DNA from: a virus
Lineage: Duplodnaviria > Heunggongvirae > Uroviricota > Caudoviricetes
Length of the DNA: 11,227 nt
IMG/VR virus record: IMGVR_UViG_2913157538_000006
Reading direction: 5' to 3' (one strand)
Part shown: positions 1 through 7,598 of the stretch, in pieces
Numbering within the stretch: position 1 is the first letter of the stretch
How the letters are laid out: every line of letters starts with the position of its first letter
Made by a program: the position numbers and the translations under genes
The notes under the pieces: generated by a model
Seen by the model: the letters and a program-made list of their open reading frames with translations, nothing else
Databases searched by the model: none
Told to the model about the DNA's origin: nothing

Positions 1-1158
1 ATGCTCACCGTTAAGCAGATTGAAGCAGCAAAGCCGAAAGAAAAACCATACCGCCTTCTCGATGGTAATGGCCTGTACCTTTATGTCCCTGTGTCAGGGA
101 AAAAGGTATGGCAGCTTCGCTACAAGATTGACGGTAAGGAGAAAATCCTGACCGTCGGAAAATATCCGCTTATGACTTTGCAGGAGGCAAGGGATAAAGC
201 ATGGACTGCGAGGAAAGACATCTCGGTTGGCATCGATCCTGTAAAGGCGAAAAAGGCTTCGTCTAACAACAATTCCTTTAGTGCGATTTACAAGGAATGG
301 TACGAGCACAAGAAGCAAGTATGGTCAGTAGGGTATGCAACTGAACTTGCCAAAATGTTTGACGACGACATTTTACCTATCATTGGCGGCCTTGAAATTC
401 AGGATATTGAGCCGATGCAACTGCTGGAAGTAATCCGCAGGTTTGAAGATCGCGGTGCAATGGAACGAGCCAACAAAGCACGCAGAAGATGCGGCGAGGT
501 TTTCCGTTACGCTATTGTCACCGGAAGGGCTAAATATAACCCGGCACCTGACCTTGCTGACGCCATGAAGGGATACCGCAAGAAGAACTTCCCGTTTCTT
601 CCTGCAGACCAGATCCCGGCATTCAACAAAGCACTGGCAACATTTTCAGGAAGTATCGTATCGCTCATTGCGACCAAAGTTTTACGCTACACAGCCCTAA
701 GAACGAAAGAGCTTCGTTCCATGCTATGGAAGAACGTCGATTTTGAAAATAGGATTATCACCATCGACGCCAGTGTGATGAAAGGACGCAAAATTCATGT
801 GGTTCCTATGTCAGACCAGGTAGTTGAACTTCTCACTACGCTAAGCTCCATCACCAAACCAGTCTCAGAGTTTGTTTTTGCCGGGCGCAACGATAAGAAG
901 AAGCCAATCTGCGAGAACGCGGTACTGCTTGTGATCAAACAAATCGGCTATGAGGGTCTGGAAAGCGGTCACGGATTCAGGCATGAATTCAGCACGATTA
1001 TGAACGAGCACGAATGGCCTGCTGACGCTATTGAAGTGCAACTGGCACATGCAAACGGCGGATCTGTGCGTGGGATTTACAACCATGCTCAGTATCTCGA
1101 TAAACGCAGAGAAATGATGCAATGGTGGGCGGACTGGCTTGATGAGAAGGTGGAGTGA
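1..1158 (+). CDS. intS: Prophage tyrosine integrase (P4-like site-specific recombinase)
   Basis: 385-aa ORF starting at the window edge. C-terminal catalytic region has the tyrosine-recombinase pattern (HGFRHEF ... LAHANGGSVRGIYNHAQY). N-terminal MLTVKQIEAAKPKEKPYRLLDGNGLYLYV is typical of P4-family integrases. Symbol is from recollection of the E. coli K-12 CPS-53 integrase, not a database search. Confidence 0.92.
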   Translation: MLTVKQIEAAKPKEKPYRLLDGNGLYLYVPVSGKKVWQLRYKIDGKEKILTVGKYPLMTLQEARDKAWTARKDISVGIDPVKAKKASSNNNSFSAIYKEWYEHKKQVWSVGYATELAKMFDDDILPIIGGLEIQDIEPMQLLEVIRRFEDRGAMERANKARRRCGEVFRYAIVTGRAKYNPAPDLADAMKGYRKKNFPFLPADQIPAFNKALATFSGSIVSLIATKVLRYTALRTKELRSMLWKNVDFENRIITIDASVMKGRKIHVVPMSDQVVELLTTLSSITKPVSEFVFAGRNDKKKPICENAVLLVIKQIGYEGLESGHGFRHEFSTIMNEHEWPADAIEVQLAHANGGSVRGIYNHAQYLDKRREMMQWWADWLDEKVE

Positions 1159-1310
1159 GCGACCTTAACAACTATCGAATAGCACAAAGTCTTGCAATCC
1201 AGTGCAAAGCTTTGTGTGTATAAGTTTTGTCTCATCAACCACAGCAAGTATCGATCGATTAAGACTTGGATGATAGACTTCATTCCTTTGATTATTAGCT
1301 GATAGAAGAA

Positions 1311-1673
1311 ATGTTAAAGCTATTTGCAAAGTACACCTCTATTGGTGTGCTGAACACCCTTATACACTGGGTGGTTTTTGGTGTTTGTATCTATGTCGCG
1401 CATACAAACCAAGCTCTTGCAAACTTCGCAGGTTTCGTTGTGGCTGTGAGCTTTAGCTTCTTCGCGAATGCAAAATTCACATTCAAGGCATCGACTACAA
1501 CGATGCGCTACATGCTATATGTTGGGTTCATGGGGACACTGAGTGCTACTGTTGGATGGGCTGCTGATAGATGCGCACTTCCCCCGATGATAACTCTTGT
1601 CACCTTCTCCGCCATCAGCCTGGTGTGCGGTTTCGTCTATTCAAAGTTCATTGTCTTTAGGGATGCGAAATGA
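1311..1673 (+). CDS. gtrA: Bactoprenol-linked glucose translocase (GtrA flippase)
   Basis: 120-aa small hydrophobic protein with about four predicted membrane spans, immediately upstream of a GT2 glucosyltransferase. Its stop overlaps the next start (ATGA at 1670-1673). Matches the canonical gtrA position in serotype-converting prophages (K-12 name yfdG, recalled). Confidence 0.88.
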
Positions 1674-1756
1674 AGATATCTCTTGTAGTTCCTGTCTTCA
1701 ATGAAGAAGAAGCGATACCAATTTTTTATAAAACGGTACGTGAATTCGAAGAATTG

Positions 1757-1795
1757 TGATCTTACCCAGCAATAGTGGACACGCGGCTAAGTGAG
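1757..1795. repeat. IS3 left terminal inverted repeat
   Basis: TGATCTTACCCAGCAATAGTGGACACGCGGCTAAGTGAG matches the reverse complement of the right end at about 30 of 39 positions (aligned by eye). Confidence 0.8.
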
Positions 1796-1821
1796 TAAAC
1801 TCTCAGTCAGAGGTGACTCAC

Positions 1822-2121
1822 ATGACAAAAACAGTATCAACCAGTAAAAAACCCCGTAAACAGCATTCGCCTGAATTTCGCAGTGAAGCCCTGAAGCTTG
1901 CTGAACGCATCGGTGTTACTGCCGCAGCCCGTGAACTCAGCCTGTATGAATCACAACTCTACAACTGGCGCAGTAAACAGCAAAATCAGCAGACGTCTTC
2001 TGAACGTGAACTGGAGATGTCTACCGAGATTGCACGTCTCAAACGCCAGCTGGCAGAACGGGATGAAGAGCTGGCTATCCTCCAAAAGGCCGCGACATAC
2101 TTCGCGAAGCGCCTGAAATGA
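1822..2121 (+). CDS. insE: IS3 OrfA (transposase N-terminal, HTH DNA-binding part)
   Basis: ATG at 1822 is preceded by GAGGTG (1810-1815). Product is 99 aa ([32 protein letters not shown] ...) with a leucine-zipper-like C-terminus. The ORF track begins at an upstream GTG (1813); the ATG is the more likely start. Confidence 0.88.
2084..2088 (+). other. Candidate programmed -1 ribosomal frameshift site (A-AAG) for the OrfAB transposase
   Basis: In the orfA frame the codons read CAA AAG (2083-2088). The -1 frame is open from here into orfB. IS3-family frameshifting at A-AAG or A-AAA-AAG motifs is established knowledge; this exact site is inferred, not demonstrated. Confidence 0.5.
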
Positions 2122-2984
2122 AGTATGTCTTTATTGAAAAACATCAGGCTGAGTTCAGCATCAAAGCAATGTGCCGCGTGCTCCGGGTGGCCCGCAGCGG
2201 CTGGTATACGTGGTGTCAGCGGCGGACAAGGATAAGCACGCGTCAGCAGTTCCGCCAACACTGCGACAGCGTTGTCCTCGCGGCTTTTACCCGGTCAAAA
2301 CAGCGTTACGGTGCCCCACGCCTGACGGATGAACTGCGTGCTCAGGGTTACCCCTTTAACGTAAAAACCGTGGCGGCAAGCCTGCGCCGTCAGGGACTGA
2401 GGGCAAAGGCCTCCCGGAAGTTCAGCCCGGTCAGCTACCGCGCACACGGCCTGCCTGTGTCAGAAAATCTGTTGGAGCAGGATTTTTACGCCAGTGGCCC
2501 GAACCAGAAGTGGGCAGGAGACATCACGTACTTACGTACAGATGAAGGCTGGCTGTATCTGGCAGTGGTCATTGACCTGTGGTCACGTGCCGTTATTGGC
2601 TGGTCAATGTCGCCACGCATGACGGCGCAACTGGCCTGCGATGCCCTGCAGATGGCGCTGTGGCGGCGTAAGAGGCCCCGGAACGTTATCGTTCACACGG
2701 ACCGTGGAGGCCAGTACTGTTCAGCAGATTATCAGGCGCAACTGAAGCGGCATAATCTGCGTGGAAGTATGAGCGCAAAAGGTTGCTGCTACGATAATGC
2801 CTGCGTGGAAAGCTTCTTTCATTCGCTGAAAGTGGAATGTATCCATGGAGAACACTTTATCAGCCGGGAAATAATGCGGGCAACGGTGTTTAATTATATC
2901 GAATGTGATTACAATCGGTGGCGGCGGCACAGTTGGTGTGGCGGCCTCAGTCCGGAACAATTTGAAAACAAGAACCTCGCTTAG
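2118..2984 (+). CDS. insF: IS3 OrfB (transposase catalytic DDE domain; normally expressed as an OrfAB fusion)
   Basis: 288-aa ORF in the -1 frame relative to orfA, with ATGA overlap at 2118-2121. Contains an integrase-like catalytic core (WAGDITYL ... [10 protein letters not shown] ... [13 protein letters not shown]). Confidence 0.88.
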
Positions 2985-3014
2985 GCCTGTGTCCATATTA
3001 CGTGGGTAGGATCA
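2976..3014. repeat. IS3 right terminal inverted repeat
   Basis: Reverse complement TGATCCTACCCACGTAATATGGACACAGGCCTAAGCGAG pairs with the left end. Confidence 0.8.
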
Positions 3015-3847
3015 TTGAAGTCATATGAAGTGGAAATCGTTTTCATAAATGACGGCAGCAAAGACGCTACGGAGTCAATCATTAATGCTCTGGCTGTTTC
3101 AGATCCTCTAGTTGTTCCGCTGTCATTTACACGCAACTTTGGTAAAGAACCAGCATTGTTTGCAGGGTTAGACCATGCAACCGGGGATGCGATAATCCCA
3201 ATTGATGTTGACCTGCAAGACCCGATTGAGGTTATTCCTCATCTTATTGAAAAATGGCAAGCAGGTGCTGATATGGTTCTTGCTAAAAGATCTGACCGCT
3301 CAACTGATGGACGCCTGAAGCGAAAAACGGCTGAGTGGTTCTATAAGCTCCACAATAAAATAAGCAATCCTAAAATTGAAGAGAATGTTGGTGATTTCAG
3401 GCTGATGAGCCGTGATGTTGTCGAAAATATTAAACTTATGCCAGAACGAAACCTTTTCATGAAAGGTATTCTGAGCTGGGTAGGAGGAAAGACAGATATT
3501 GTTGAATACGTGCGAGCGGAAAGAATTGCTGGAGATACAAAATTTAATGGATGGAAACTTTGGAATTTAGCACTTGAGGGTATTACAAGCTTTTCCACAT
3601 TCCCTCTTCGCATCTGGACATACATAGGGTTAGTGGTAGCCAGTGTAGCATTTATTTATGGGGCGTGGATGATTTTAGATACTATCATATTTGGAAATGC
3701 TGTTAGGGGATATCCTTCACTACTTGTTTCAATACTGTTTTTAGGTGGAATTCAGATGATTGGAATAGGAGTATTAGGTGAATATATTGGACGCACATAC
3801 ATTGAAACCAAAAAACGCCCGAAATACATCATCAAGAGAGTCAAAAA

Positions 3848-5179
3848 ATGAATAAAGCAATAAAAGTATCATTGTATATATCTTTTGTTTTGATTATTTG
3901 CGCCTTATCTAAAAACATAATGATGTTAAATACATCTGATTTCGGAAGAGCCATTAAGCCATTAATTGAAGACATACCAGCATTTACATATGACTTACCT
4001 TTATTGTATAAATTGAAAGGTCATATTGATTCAATTGATAGCTATGAGTATATAAGTTCATATAGTTATATTTTGTATACATACGTCCTGTTTATTAGCA
4101 TTTTTACTGAATATCTTGATGCTAGGGTGTTATCGTTATTTCTAAAAGTAATATATATTTATTCATTATATGCGATATTTACTTCATATATAAAAACAGA
4201 AAGGTATGTAACTTTATTTACATTCTTTATTTTAGCTTTTCTTATGTGTTCTTCATCAACACTGTCAATGTTTGCATCATTCTATCAAGAGCAAATAGTT
4301 ATAATTTTCCTTCCATTTTTGGTGTATTCATTAACATGCAAAAACAATAAATCTATGCTTTTGCTATTTTTTTCGTTGCTAATAATATCTACTGCTAAAA
4401 ATCAATTTATATTAACCCCACTAATAGTGTATTCATATTATATTTTTTTTGATAGACACAAACTAATTATTAAATCTGTAATATGCGTGGTGTGCTTGCT
4501 TGCGTCAATATTTGCAATATCTTATTCAAAAGGTGTTGTTGAATTAAATAAGTACCATGCAACATACTTCGGTAGTTATCTTTATATGAAAAACAACGGG
4601 TATAAAATGCCATCGTATGTTGATGATAAGTGTGTTGGGTTAGATGCCTGGGGTAATAAATTCGACATATCATTTGGCGCAACCCCAACAGAAGTTGGAA
4701 CGGAATGTTTCGAATCTCATAAAGATGAAACGTTTTCGAATGCACTCTTTTTATTGGTTAGCAAACCAAGCACCATCTTCAAACTTCCATTTGATGATGG
4801 TGTGATGTCTCAGTATAAAGAAAATTATTTCCATGTATATAAAAAACTACACGTAATATATGGAGAATCAAACATACTAACGACTATTACTAACATAAAA
4901 GACAATATATTTAAAAACATTAGATTTATATCATTGTTATTATTTTTTATTGCTTCTATTTTTATTAGAAATAATAAAATAAAGGCATCTTTATTTGTAG
5001 TATCTCTTTTTGGAATATCTCAATTTTATGTGTCATTTTTCGGGGAAGGATATAGAGATTTAAGCAAGCATTTATTTGGAATGTATTTTTCGTTCGACCT
5101 TTGCTTATACATAACAGTCGTTTTTTTAATTTATAAAATAATTCAAAGAAATCAAGACAATAGCGATGTAAAGCACTAA
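3848..5179 (+). CDS. yfdI: Serotype-specific O-antigen glucosyltransferase (GtrS-type polytopic membrane protein)
   Basis: 443-aa strongly hydrophobic, AT-rich ORF with multiple membrane spans and a larger soluble segment. Third gene of a gtr cassette, with ATGA overlap to gtrB at 3848-3851. The symbol is the recalled K-12 locus name. Confidence 0.82.
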
Positions 5180-5187
5180 GTTTAAAT

Positions 5188-5209
5188 TGCGCGCCAATCA
5201 TGGCGCGCA
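5188..5209. terminator. GC-rich hairpin immediately after gtrS (possible bidirectional terminator)
   Basis: TGCGCGCC (5188-5195), 6-nt loop, GGCGCGCA (5202-5209): a perfect 8-bp stem 9 nt past the gtrS stop. There is no clear T-run on the plus strand; a short A/T-rich run follows on the minus strand. Confidence 0.35.
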
Positions 5210-5477
5210 CAAGCTATAATACCAACCTAATTTCTCCTCCTCTTAGAGTGACTATATCTCCTGATAGAATTGCGGTATTGACTATCAAATGCCCTGATTC
5301 GTTGTTTATTGTAATATCTCCTCTATCTGCAGACGATAACTTAAATGCATCATTGCCCACAACAAACCCCCTCCAGAACCAAGTGCTGATATTATCATCA
5401 ACAGTGATAGATACATATACTAACTGATTATCGTTATAAGTGATTCCTGTCTTATACTTAACATAAGGACTTCCACT

Positions 5478-5822
5478 TTGATTCTCGATAGACACATAAC
5501 ATCCAGGGGTTATGTTTGTATGCGTCCCGCGACTATCGCCCCATTAACGCCATACGATAAATGGGATGGTGAGAAATGGGTGACGGATACCGAGGCACAG
5601 CATAGCGTCGCAGTAGATGCAGCAGAAGCACAGCGCCAGTCGCTGATTGATACTGCAATGGCTTCCATTAGTCTGATTCAACTGAAATTACAGGCTGGGC
5701 GGAAGCTGATGCAGGCAGAGACCTCCCGACTTAACACTGTGCTGGATTACATTGACGCGGTGACGGCAACAGATACCAGCACCGCGCCGGATGTCATCTG
5801 GCCTGAACTGCCGGAGGAGTAG
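5478..5822 (+). pseudogene. tfaS: Tail fibre assembly protein fragment (C-terminal part only)
   Basis: The C-terminal roughly 90 aa (... PLTPYDKWDGEKW ... LDYIDAVTATDTSTAPDVIWPELPEE) resemble the C-terminal half of phage Tfa/gpU-type proteins and parallel the C-terminus of the convergent yfdK product (DTSSAPDIEWPTPP). The expected N-terminal motif (MxYxYSATTN) is absent. Confidence 0.72.
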
Positions 5823-6234
5823 GCCATTCAATATCTGGCGCACTGGAAGTATCGACCAGCTCCAGTGCGTCCAGATAATCCAGCCACAAATTATATTGCG
5901 CCAGTTCCTCACCTTTCAGACGACCAATAGCCGCTTTACCAGCCCATTGTTTACTGTTCATATAATCGTTGGCCTGATTAATCAATTGCTGCTTTTTCAG
6001 TTCGGCTGCAGCAATCTGTTCCTCATGTGTTGGTGGTGGAATTTCAGACCATGCAGGAAAACCATTTTCTCCAGCGATACGGATTTTTCCTTTCGGCGGT
6101 AATCCGGAAAACTCAATATACACTTGCTCATCAACTTCAACAGCATCATCTGGCCATGAGCCAGCTTGCGTGTAATCCTCTTTCATCTCCAAGGGATAGA
6201 AAGAGTTTGTAGTCGCGGAATATATGTAATTCAT
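5794..6234 (-). CDS. yfdK: Tail fibre assembly protein (Tfa/gpU family)
   Basis: 146 aa, beginning MNYIYSATTNSFYPLEMKEDYTQAGSWPDDAVEV, with GGAG about 7 nt upstream of the ATG at 6234. Lies directly downstream of the tail-fibre fragment on the same strand. Confidence 0.88.
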   Translation of the reverse strand: MNYIYSATTNSFYPLEMKEDYTQAGSWPDDAVEVDEQVYIEFSGLPPKGKIRIAGENGFPAWSEIPPPTHEEQIAAAELKKQQLINQANDYMNSKQWAGKAAIGRLKGEELAQYNLWLDYLDALELVDTSSAPDIEWPTPPAVQAR

Positions 6235-6260
6235 TTTTCACTCCATAAAGTTAAAAGAAA

Positions 6261-6779
6261 TTAACACCCTAATGCGAAAAATGAAGCACCGATACCGGGT
6301 ACGCCTGCTCTGGAAATAAATTTCACCGGGTCCTGGTTATAACCGGCACAAGCTATATAGCCAACATTTGCACTGCCGGGAGTGTAATCCTGAGTCGCAA
6401 ATACCCGCAGACATCTATTCGGAAATGCAATCGGAAAATAGGTTACTGTGTCCTGAGACGTCAGCGGAACATCAATTGGCCCCCATTGAATAATTAAACC
6501 GGATGGCAATTTTTGATATCCAGGAACTGAAGCAGAAAGCATAAAACTACCCATATCAGGTATCTGATTCGCCCCTGTCCCTACATTTCTTTTAGCCGCT
6601 TCTCCCAAACCAAGGTTTTCGAGAGCCTTTTGCACCGTGCCGTCCAATTTGATATCGCCAAACGGATTCTTGCGGCTTAACAGCAGCGCACGAAGCGCGG
6701 TAAGCAGCTGGTCATGCCGCCCCTTCTCCAGGCTGGCACCGGAGGCCTCCACAACGCTGCAAAGCTCCTCCTGCAACAT
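6261..6779 (-). pseudogene. yfdL: Tail fibre protein C-terminal (receptor-binding) fragment
   Basis: 172 aa from an internal Met. The same frame is open further upstream to 6983 with no plausible RBS at 6779, so this is the 3' end of a once larger gene. It is followed by a tfa gene, as in Mu S-U, P2 H-G and e14 stf-tfa pairs. Confidence 0.68.
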
Positions 6780-6828
6780 GTCAAAGTAGTCATCATCCAG
6801 ATCGGTGGCAGGCGTGCCGGTCTGGGGG

Positions 6829-7104
6829 TTACCACGGGTACGGGGGATTACCAAAGGCAGCACCTTTAAGCTCCGCAAGACGTTCTGACCAGTCATGCGC
6901 CAGCGCGTTGTCTTCCGCAGTGTAATACGCGGCACATTTGGCGTTATCACCATCAGTAAACAGATCCAGAACAAACGGGCCAAACAGGGTGTTAATTCCC
7001 CAGAAAATGTTGTCCGGCGTGCGCCACTGATCGCCCACTTCCTTCAGTTCATGGGCTGGTTTGTTCCGCAGCTCCACCAGCGCCTGGCAATATTTATTAC
7101 TCAT
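6829..7104 (-). pseudogene. yfdM: Phage Dam-type N6-adenine DNA methyltransferase, N-terminal fragment truncated just after the NPPY motif
   Basis: Product ends ... [12 protein letters not shown] then stop. NPPY is the catalytic motif IV of N6-adenine methyltransferases, which normally sits mid-protein. Start taken at the Met whose ATG overlaps the yfdN stop (TAATG at 7102-7106); the ORF track extends to an upstream start at 7137. Confidence 0.72.
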
Positions 7105-7598
7105 TAAGCCCCCACGTAATTCCCTGAGAGATACCACTCTTCACCTGATGCAGCCCGCTTACTGCTTTTCCGTAAACACCGTTCACGACGCGCCAGAAAA
7201 TTGTTTCGTTCTGGCTGGGAGTGGCTTTCACGGAATGCCGCCATCCACACCGTTGCAGCACGACGGTATAAGCCCCTGGACTCCAGTTCTTCCGCCTGGC
7301 GGGTCAGGCACAAAATCACCCGCGGGTCGTTAGTGCCGACATAGAAATTGCGCACAGGTCTGGTTTCACGAACTGGTTGTGGTTCCGGATCCTGCGCTCT
7401 CTCAGTCAGGCGCGGGAAATGTCTGTGTGTATCTCCTTCACAACGGTGAGCCACACGCCCACTCTGACGTAACTTGCTTGCTGACTGCAGAACGCGCTGC
7501 CGTGAGTAACCTGCAAAAGCATCCGCAATGTCTCCGGAAGTACAGCCCGGATGGGCTTCAATGAATTTCTGAACGTCATTCAAAAGACTCATGCTCAC
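7104..7598 (-). CDS. yfdN: Hypothetical prophage protein with a PerC-like C-terminal region
   Basis: 164-aa ORF. The segment AEELESRGLYRRAATVWMAAFRESHSQPERNNFLARRERCL resembles the GLWRRAA..W core of PerC/Pch-type regulators as I recall it; this is unverified. Start is ambiguous: GTG at 7598 (AGGA 8 nt upstream) or ATG at 7592. Confidence 0.75.
   Translation of the reverse strand: MSMSLLNDVQKFIEAHPGCTSGDIADAFAGYSRQRVLQSASKLRQSGRVAHRCEGDTHRHFPRLTERAQDPEPQPVRETRPVRNFYVGTNDPRVILCLTRQAEELESRGLYRRAATVWMAAFRESHSQPERNNFLARRERCLRKSSKRAASGEEWYLSGNYVGA

Follow-up and report, generated by a model that had tools for sequence, protein, structure and literature searches.

An IS3 insertion in gtrB (yfdH) of the CPS-53/KpLE1 prophage remnant shared by C600-group strains of Escherichia coli K-12

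Introduction

Serotype-converting phages, such as SfV and SfX of Shigella and P22 of Salmonella, carry a three-gene gtr cassette beside the phage integrase at a tRNA gene. The GtrA-family membrane protein is thought to flip undecaprenyl-phosphate glucose (UndP-glucose), and the gtr promoters of Salmonella are phase-variable through Dam/OxyR. In E. coli K-12, the gtrA-gtrB-gtrS cassette corresponds to yfdG-yfdH-yfdI, where yfdH is the gene for the bactoprenol (undecaprenyl-phosphate) glucosyltransferase and YfdI is the O16-specific periplasmic glucosyltransferase that adds the O16 glucose side chain (PMC10578602). The stretch of DNA analysed here, referred to as the window, has 11,227 nucleotides and spans the CPS-53/KpLE1 prophage remnant of E. 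coli K-12 in its entirety, from intS to torI. Compared with the cassettes of SfV, SfX and P22, the present one lies in a defective prophage remnant and appears to be inactivated by an insertion.

The gtr cassette and its surroundings

The genes of the cassette and the adjacent integrase gene are located as follows, in positions of the window:

1-1158, + strand: intS, the CPS-53/KpLE1 integrase gene (Pfam Phage_integrase, Phage_int_M and Arm-DNA-bind_3; RefSeq 'intS')
1311-1673, + strand: gtrA (yfdG), intact, 120 aa (Pfam GtrA_DPMS_TM, E=2.6e-13; annotated yfdG)
1670-1756, + strand: gtrB (yfdH) 5' fragment, 29 codons (RefSeq pseudogene piece 'missing C-terminus')
3018-3851, + strand: gtrB (yfdH) 3' fragment, codons 30-306 and the stop (RefSeq pseudogene piece 'missing N-terminus')
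3848-5179, + strand: yfdI (gtrS-type), intact, 443 aa (annotated 'YfdI family membrane protein')

As in a phage-type gtrA-gtrB-gtr(type) cassette, yfdG, yfdH and yfdI are consecutive and co-oriented. They lie directly downstream of intS, which in the C600 record adjoins a tRNA-Arg gene just beyond the window edge (RefSeq). The stop codon of gtrA overlaps the start of gtrB in an ATGA (1670-1673), and the stop of gtrB overlaps the start of yfdI in the same manner. With regard to the third gene, the only NCBIfam similarity of note is a weak match to WsfD (67.9 bits, below the cut-off of 80). A phase-variable promoter of the Dam/OxyR type was considered for this cassette and rejected, as only one GATC (position 1253) is found between intS and gtrA; the arrangement of the Salmonella cassettes is thus not evident upstream of gtrA.

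An IS3 element within gtrB

The two gtrB fragments are separated by an insertion sequence whose transposase genes are read in the same direction as the gtr genes:

1754-1756: TTG target duplication, left copy (a single TTG in the MG1655-type empty site)
1757-3014, + strand: IS3, 1258 bp, with 100% full-length identity to annotated IS3 copies
1757-1795: IRL, left terminal inverted repeat, a 39-nt arm that starts with 5'-TG
1822-2121, + strand: IS3 orfA, 99 aa, ATG at 1822 (Pfam HTH_Tnp_1, helix-turn-helix)
2084-2088, + strand: A-AAA-G slippery site, programmed -1 frameshift leading to the OrfAB transposase
2118-2984, + strand: IS3 orfB, 288 aa, with the DDE/integrase-core catalytic domain
2976-3014: IRR, right terminal inverted repeat, a 39-nt arm with CA-3' at its end
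3015-3017: TTG target duplication, right copy (a single TTG in the MG1655-type empty site)

The first-pass annotation of this DNA had described an IS3 element with intact ends and both open reading frames, and the database comparison bears this out, since positions 1757-3014 are 100% identical over 1258 nt to copies annotated as 'IS3-like element IS3 family transposase'. The best IS3 match was at least 99% identical in 4075 E. coli records, and the search counted 18,499 IS3 places. The terminal inverted repeats are imperfect: the end sequences are TGATC...GATCA, the 39-nt arms are 72% complementary in the repeat search and 28 of the 40 terminal positions match. The orfA product covers positions 1-87 of the NCBIfam transpos_IS3 model, while that of orfB scores 339 bits against it (cut-off 160) and has the Pfam domains rve (5.1e-28), rve_2 and HTH_21. 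When base 2088 is read twice, orfA and orfB are fused into an open 387-aa product, so that OrfAB is predicted to be made by a programmed -1 frameshift at A-AAA-G; RefSeq likewise annotates the transposase CDS as 'programmed frameshift' in two joined pieces (window 1822-2984). The element therefore has the features of the IS3 family in its length (the range for the family being about 1.2-1.55 kb), identity, TG...CA ends, frameshifted pair of reading frames, DDE domain and 3-bp duplication.

The gtrB frame starts with the ATG at 1670 and runs for 29 codons to REFEEL, after which the first three bases of IS3 (1757-1759) provide a TGA. GtrB is thus cut after 29 residues, as had been proposed, and the list of open reading frames contains a 278-aa frame that begins at the duplicated TTG at 3015. 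With 1670-1756 placed directly before 3018-3851, the resulting 921 nt encode a 306-aa frame, in agreement with the earlier proposal that the flanks form one gtrB once the element and one TTG are removed. The open frame is not in itself discriminating, since removing IS3 with both TTGs kept also leaves it open (307 aa), and a 3-nt repeat would flank the element by chance alone in 1/64 of cases. Both doubts are removed by comparison with uninterrupted genes: a rebuilt 400-nt empty site with one TTG is identical at 400/400 nt to MG1655, EMG2, AB1157, MC4100 and J53, and the single TTG of these genomes identifies the second copy as a duplication. The rebuilt protein contains a GT2 domain (Pfam Glycos_transf_2, residues 4-167, E=2.8e-31), which the interrupted gene no longer encodes in one piece. 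Furthermore, its residues 2-302 align to residues 27-327 of the Synechocystis GtrB structure 5EKP (E=1.2e-88), including the N-terminal motif and the C-terminal membrane region. By these similarities, the rebuilt gene is assigned as GtrB, a polyisoprenyl-phosphate glucosyltransferase of family GT2.

Distribution among genomes and strain history

Both IS3-yfdH junctions were found together in 54 of the 5426 genomes searched. All 11,227 bases are 100% identical to 53 of these complete genomes, and the 54th, CV601, matches at 99.4%. The carriers with placeable names are C600/EC600, TG1, RV308, GM4792, NEB Turbo or their transconjugants. A 55th match to the left junction proved to be a different event, an independent IS3 insertion in another prophage gtrB, in strain Z142-6. 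The rebuilt empty site was matched at a minimum of 99% identity in 363 records, the half-matches of the carriers included, and about 300 other K-12-type genomes have an identical, intact yfdH. MG1655-type genomes match the window at 100% identity and 89% coverage, since only IS3 and the duplicated triplet are missing from them. The earlier view of a recent transposition is confirmed.

Assemblies often go wrong at IS elements, and an IS3 copy could have been misplaced into yfdH in the source genome. Against such an artefact, 54 complete genomes, sequenced independently in many laboratories and with many platforms, all show these two junctions and the clean 3-bp duplication; its probability is very low.

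The first-pass annotation had also raised the idea of a reversible event. IS3 would then turn O-antigen glucosylation off by inserting and on again by excising precisely. Precise loss of IS3 and one TTG would indeed restore gtrB exactly. However, the insertion is identical in all 54 carriers, and no revertant is evident among the empty-site genomes listed, a part of the roughly 300, which belong to other K-12 branches such as MG1655, EMG2, MC4100 and J53. Elements of the IS3 family very rarely excise precisely, and their transposase does not promote it. Moreover, C600, the carrier examined, lacks an O antigen, which leaves nothing to switch. The idea is therefore unsupported and extremely improbable.

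As judged from the genome comparison, the insertion is a laboratory-lineage marker that arose after the isolation of K-12. Its date relative to AB1157 depends on the pedigrees of the strains, which were built by crosses able to replace this region. RV308 descended from a cross with C600, and one IS3 more than in MG1655 has been reported for it, the position not being given (PMC4239343). RefSeq already annotates yfdH in the carriers as two pseudogene pieces around IS3, and an explicit account of yfdH::IS3 was not found in the literature searched. On this public annotation, rather than on any paper, yfdH::IS3 is an already known and ordinary state of the C600/TG1/RV308 group of K-12 and not a new event.

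A single origin would account for this distribution. One IS3 copy would have transposed into codon 29/30 of yfdH, duplicating the target TTG, in laboratory culture and in an ancestor of the C600 group. The interrupted allele would then have reached EC600, TG1, NEB Turbo, RV308, GM4792 and others by vertical inheritance or crosses.

Predicted effects on GtrB, gtrS and the O antigen

The first 29 residues of GtrB would make up the initial strand and helix of the GT-A fold that binds the nucleotide sugar. Since this N-terminus is split off, neither the 29-aa peptide nor the product of the frame starting at TTG 3015 should make UndP-glucose, and transfer of glucose from UDP-Glc to undecaprenyl phosphate is not to be expected of the interrupted allele. 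The cassette would accordingly be non-functional whatever gtrS does. With regard to gtrS, its expression is probably reduced, since it is no longer coupled to gtrB translation through the ATGA and instead follows 837 nt of RNA that is largely untranslated. Polarity is thus plausible, and may be incomplete: IS3 is co-directional and no terminator-like site was predicted inside it on the + strand in a scan of positions 1100-5300, so that read-through into gtrS seems possible. Across that scan, predicted sites were at chance level, with 12 promoter-like sites (11.7 expected) and 4 terminator-like sites (2.7 expected).

In the one carrier genome examined for it, C600 has wbbL::IS5 (rfb-50) and a frameshifted rfbD. 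Because of wbbL::IS5, C600 makes no O16 antigen, and the host O antigen that a gtr cassette takes as substrate is missing. In terms of sequence, the cassette is a member of the gtr family but one without a substrate in C600. The loss of gtrB would be phenotypically silent for LPS in this strain, since O16 synthesis is already blocked. The earlier conclusion that glucosylation by this cassette is probably off stands in principle, but has no phenotypic meaning in C600.

It could be argued that the insertion was not neutral and gave the C600 ancestor an advantage. In a rough strain, which offers no O antigen as acceptor, GtrB would continue to load glucose onto undecaprenyl phosphate, and a knock-out would free the lipid carrier; alternatively, an envelope, phage or conjugation property could have changed. 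Several observations would fit such selection: the insertion is kept in all 54 carriers, Z142-6 has a separate IS3 insertion in a different prophage gtrB, and the Keio yfdH mutant is among six with a low yield in RP4 plate conjugation, a hint of an envelope phenotype in rough K-12. Moreover, loss of yfdI affects fitness once O16 is restored (PMC10578602). On the other hand, the roughly 300 intact K-12-type genomes have retained yfdH despite decades of rough growth, clonal descent suffices to explain retention in the carriers without selection, and two gtrB insertions among the 18,499 IS3 places amount to no enrichment. An adaptive loss of gtrB in rough K-12, whether by ending futile charging or by changing recipient ability, with IS hits in prophage gtrB genes as a recurrent route, appears very unlikely, and the same low probability applies to selection of this particular insertion. 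If it were true, the C600/EC600 recipients used world-wide would differ meaningfully from MG1655 in an envelope-relevant gene.

A single IS3 transposition in a C600 ancestor, which left the cassette inactive and is silent in C600, is very probably the correct account, and the insertion is most simply read as a neutral lineage marker; neutrality is the default reading here and is not demonstrated.

The biological weight of the insertion is small, and its practical value lies in a warning to those who use these strains: yfdH (gtrB) is null in C600, EC600, TG1, NEB Turbo, RV308 and GM4792, in contrast to MG1655, W3110-type strains, MC4100 and J53. Repair of wbbL in a strain of the C600 lineage, done to make its O16 LPS smooth, should give unglucosylated O16 unless yfdH is repaired too. 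The IS3-yfdH junction is also handy for recognising the C600 branch of K-12 by PCR or in sequence data, and could flag mislabelled strains as well as transconjugant genomes deposited under the host metadata of the donor.

Comparison with known systems

Over its 1258 bp, the inserted element has exactly the sequence of the K-12 element IS3 (IS3 family, IS3 group), along with its inverted repeats, orfA/orfB, A-AAA-G motif and 3-bp duplication, and differs from the IS3 copies of MG1655 solely in its insertion site, at codon 29/30 of yfdH. The cassette is likewise that of MG1655, with the same order of genes beside intS and tRNA-Arg and flanking DNA that is 100% identical across the window; yfdH is interrupted here, whereas it is intact in MG1655, EMG2, AB1157, MC4100 and J53. 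Over its whole length, the rebuilt YfdH can be aligned with GtrB of Synechocystis (PDB 5EKP/5EKE). Finally, yfdH::IS3 resembles rfb-50 (wbbL::IS5) in being an IS knock-out, fixed in laboratory K-12, of a gene in the O-antigen pathway, and both are present in C600. They differ in that rfb-50 prevents the O16 repeat unit from being made, with a visibly rough phenotype, while yfdH::IS3 affects side-chain modification only, is masked by rfb-50 and occurs only on a single branch of the K-12 pedigree.

IS3 within yfdH and the rebuilt gtrB frame

On sequence, the insert interrupting gtrB (yfdH) presents all the testable defining features of IS3, organised as follows:

1757-3014: IS3 insert, in the same orientation as the gtr operon, 1258 nt
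1822-2121: orfA of IS3, with an HTH_Tnp_1 domain
2084-2088: A-AAA-G frameshift site of IS3, where a one-base back-slip fuses orfA and orfB
2118-2984: orfB of IS3, with rve/rve_2 integrase-core domains and an NCBIfam transpos_IS3 score of 339 bits (cut-off, 160 bits)

The termini are 5'-TG...CA-3', and the ends form the longest inverted repeat found in the region by a repeat search (39-nt arms, 72% complementary, 1180 nt between them). A TTG flanks the insert on each side (1754-1756 and 3015-3017), the left junction reading ...GAATTCGAAGAA TTG then TGATCTTACCCAGC... and the right one ...GGGTAGGATCA then TTG AAGTCATATGAAG... Translation through the slip at A-AAA-G yields an uninterrupted OrfAB of 387 aa, for which RefSeq has a 'programmed frameshift' CDS at the same coordinates. 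Furthermore, the insert is 100% identical over all 1258 nt to copies annotated as 'IS3-like element IS3 family transposase', and the best match to it reaches at least 99% identity in 4075 E. coli records. The first-pass annotation, which described an IS3 with intact ends and both ORFs, is thus borne out.

From the ATG at 1670, the gtrB frame runs for 29 residues and stops at a TGA formed by the insert's opening triplet, so the truncation point proposed earlier is exact. Joining 1670-1756 to 3018-3851 gives 921 nt with a 306-aa ORF, continuous as claimed once the element and one TTG are removed. The frame is also open when both TTGs are kept, and its restoration alone is therefore weak evidence; what settles the matter is a database search with a rebuilt 400-nt empty site carrying one TTG. 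This site matches uninterrupted gtrB at 400/400 nt in MG1655, EMG2, AB1157, MC4100, J53 and many other strains, where the single TTG confirms the 3-bp duplication.

The rebuilt GtrB contains a Pfam GT2 domain (residues 4-167) and resembles the solved Synechocystis GtrB (5EKP) across residues 2-302 (E=1e-88), its N-terminal 11-residue stretch opening the alignment opposite LSIVIPMYNEE. The 29 residues upstream of IS3 therefore make up the opening strand and helix of the GT-A catalytic domain and, judging from general GT2 enzyme architecture, we infer that neither fragment would be active. As a side observation (3007-3017), the IS3 right end carries AGGA at 3008-3011, followed after 3 nt by the duplicated TTG (3015), which opens an in-frame ORF of 278 aa for a putative GtrB without residues 1-29; PGAP calls this 3' piece a pseudogene.

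Distribution and strain history

Of 5426 genomes, 54 have both junctions, and these 54 independent assemblies exclude an assembly artefact. The full 11,227 nt is found at 100% identity in 53 complete E. coli genomes and at 99.4% in the 54th, CV601. Carriers include C600 (several assemblies), EC600, TG1, NEB Turbo, RV308, GM4792, DTU-1, CV601 and derivatives, as well as O16:H48 'mouse gut' isolates and many transconjugants with EC600 or C600 as recipient. MG1655-type genomes match at 100% identity and 89% coverage, differing solely by 1261 nt (the IS plus the duplication). Several carriers are recorded with dog, chicken or Homo sapiens as host, yet match the window at 100% across its full 11,227 nt; members of the same strain series are entered as transconjugants, and such metadata probably describe the plasmid donor, not the sequenced chromosome. 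NZ_CP165600.1 (4.75 Mb), labelled K-12 substr. W3110, has the C600-type yfdH::IS3 with a 100% window match, unlike MG1655-type genomes, and may be mislabelled or derive from engineering or a cross.

The window in the C600 record spans intS (adjoining tRNA-Arg) to torI, the entire CPS-53/KpLE1 prophage remnant, and the annotation there splits yfdH into two pseudogenes, labelled 'missing C-terminus' and 'missing N-terminus', flanking the IS3 transposase. The remainder of the window is decayed CPS-53:

5214-7137 (- strand) and 5478-5822: pseudogenes or remnants in the C600 annotation

It contains truncated versions of a phage N6-adenine methyltransferase gene (yfdM) and of an HTH gene, together with fragments of tail-fibre-assembly genes and a piece of a gp53-like tail fibre.

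EMG2, a near-wild-type K-12 stock, has an empty yfdH site; the insertion is therefore a laboratory event, which agrees with the recent transposition proposed initially. The site is also empty in AB1157, whose early ancestry is reportedly common with that of C600 in the Bachmann pedigrees, suggesting that the insertion post-dates the AB1157/C600 split. This dating is approximate, since the region may equally have been exchanged in crosses during strain construction. A cross with C600 lies in the ancestry of RV308, whose genome note (PMC4239343) counts one extra IS3 relative to MG1655, consistent with inheritance from C600.

A selected knock-out of gtrB, for instance by relief of futile UndP charging, is possible but unlikely, with nothing speaking positively for it: yfdH is intact in about 300 further K-12-type genomes, and clonal descent explains retention in the carriers. 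yfdH::IS3 is an unremarkable IS polymorphism distinguishing K-12 sublines. IS3, the cassette and the insertion itself are already in public annotated records, while a literature search found no paper naming yfdH::IS3; in practice, it serves as a caution to strain users and as a lineage marker.

Predicted consequences for the glucosylation cassette

YfdI, the GtrS-type protein, is reported to be a periplasmic glucosyltransferase that attaches a side-branch glucose to the O16 repeat unit (PMC10578602; bioRxiv 10.64898/2026.07.26.740846). Stop-start overlaps are present at both gene junctions:

1670-1673: gtrA/gtrB ATGA overlap
3848-3851: gtrB/gtrS ATGA overlap

These overlaps point to gtrABS being a single, translationally coupled operon. 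A polar effect on yfdI is plausible because this coupling would be lost and the gene now follows 837 nt of largely untranslated RNA. A terminator scan, at chance level overall, found no terminator-like site inside IS3 on the operon strand, and read-through into yfdI is possible, since IS3 has been reported to switch on neighbouring genes in some settings. Truncated GtrB should supply no UndP-glucose donor, leaving the cassette off irrespective of yfdI.

With regard to phenotype, wbbL and rfbD were examined in one carrier, C600, whose rfb cluster (NZ_CP031214.1, locus L002:19905-21898 and 11319-12217) has wbbL split by IS5 (rfb-50) and rfbD annotated as frameshifted. Either lesion alone would be enough to abolish O16 synthesis. 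The frameshifted rfbD may be the classical 'rfbD1' marker of C600 genotypes. No O16 antigen is made in C600, so that the predicted loss of glucosylation is masked and has no LPS phenotype there. The suggestion of a reversible switch is not supported, as no carrier differs at the insertion site and C600 has no O antigen to switch.

The G+C content of yfdI (3848-5179) is 27.6%, compared to 40% in the gtrB 3' part, 46% in gtrA and 54% in IS3, which suggests a foreign origin for this serotype-specific module. The yfdH deletion of the Keio collection was among six mutants giving RP4 transconjugants only after concentration of the mating mix (bioRxiv 10.64898/2026.07.26.740846). This is surprising, given that C600 and EC600, naturally mutated by yfdH::IS3, are standard recipients; it may be coincidental or stem from a second-site mutation.

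An independent IS3 insertion in another gtrB

Strain Z142-6 (NZ_CP159689.1, locus L003:4014-6204) has a separate IS3 insertion in a different prophage gtrB, which lies beside bioA-ybhB and encodes a protein identical to YfdH at 276/306 aa. This copy, with 2 mismatches to the window IS3, is in the same orientation as its gtrB and interrupts it 489 nt from the start; removing it in silico recovers an open frame of 309 aa. Its target duplication is GTT, whereas that of the window yfdH is TTG.
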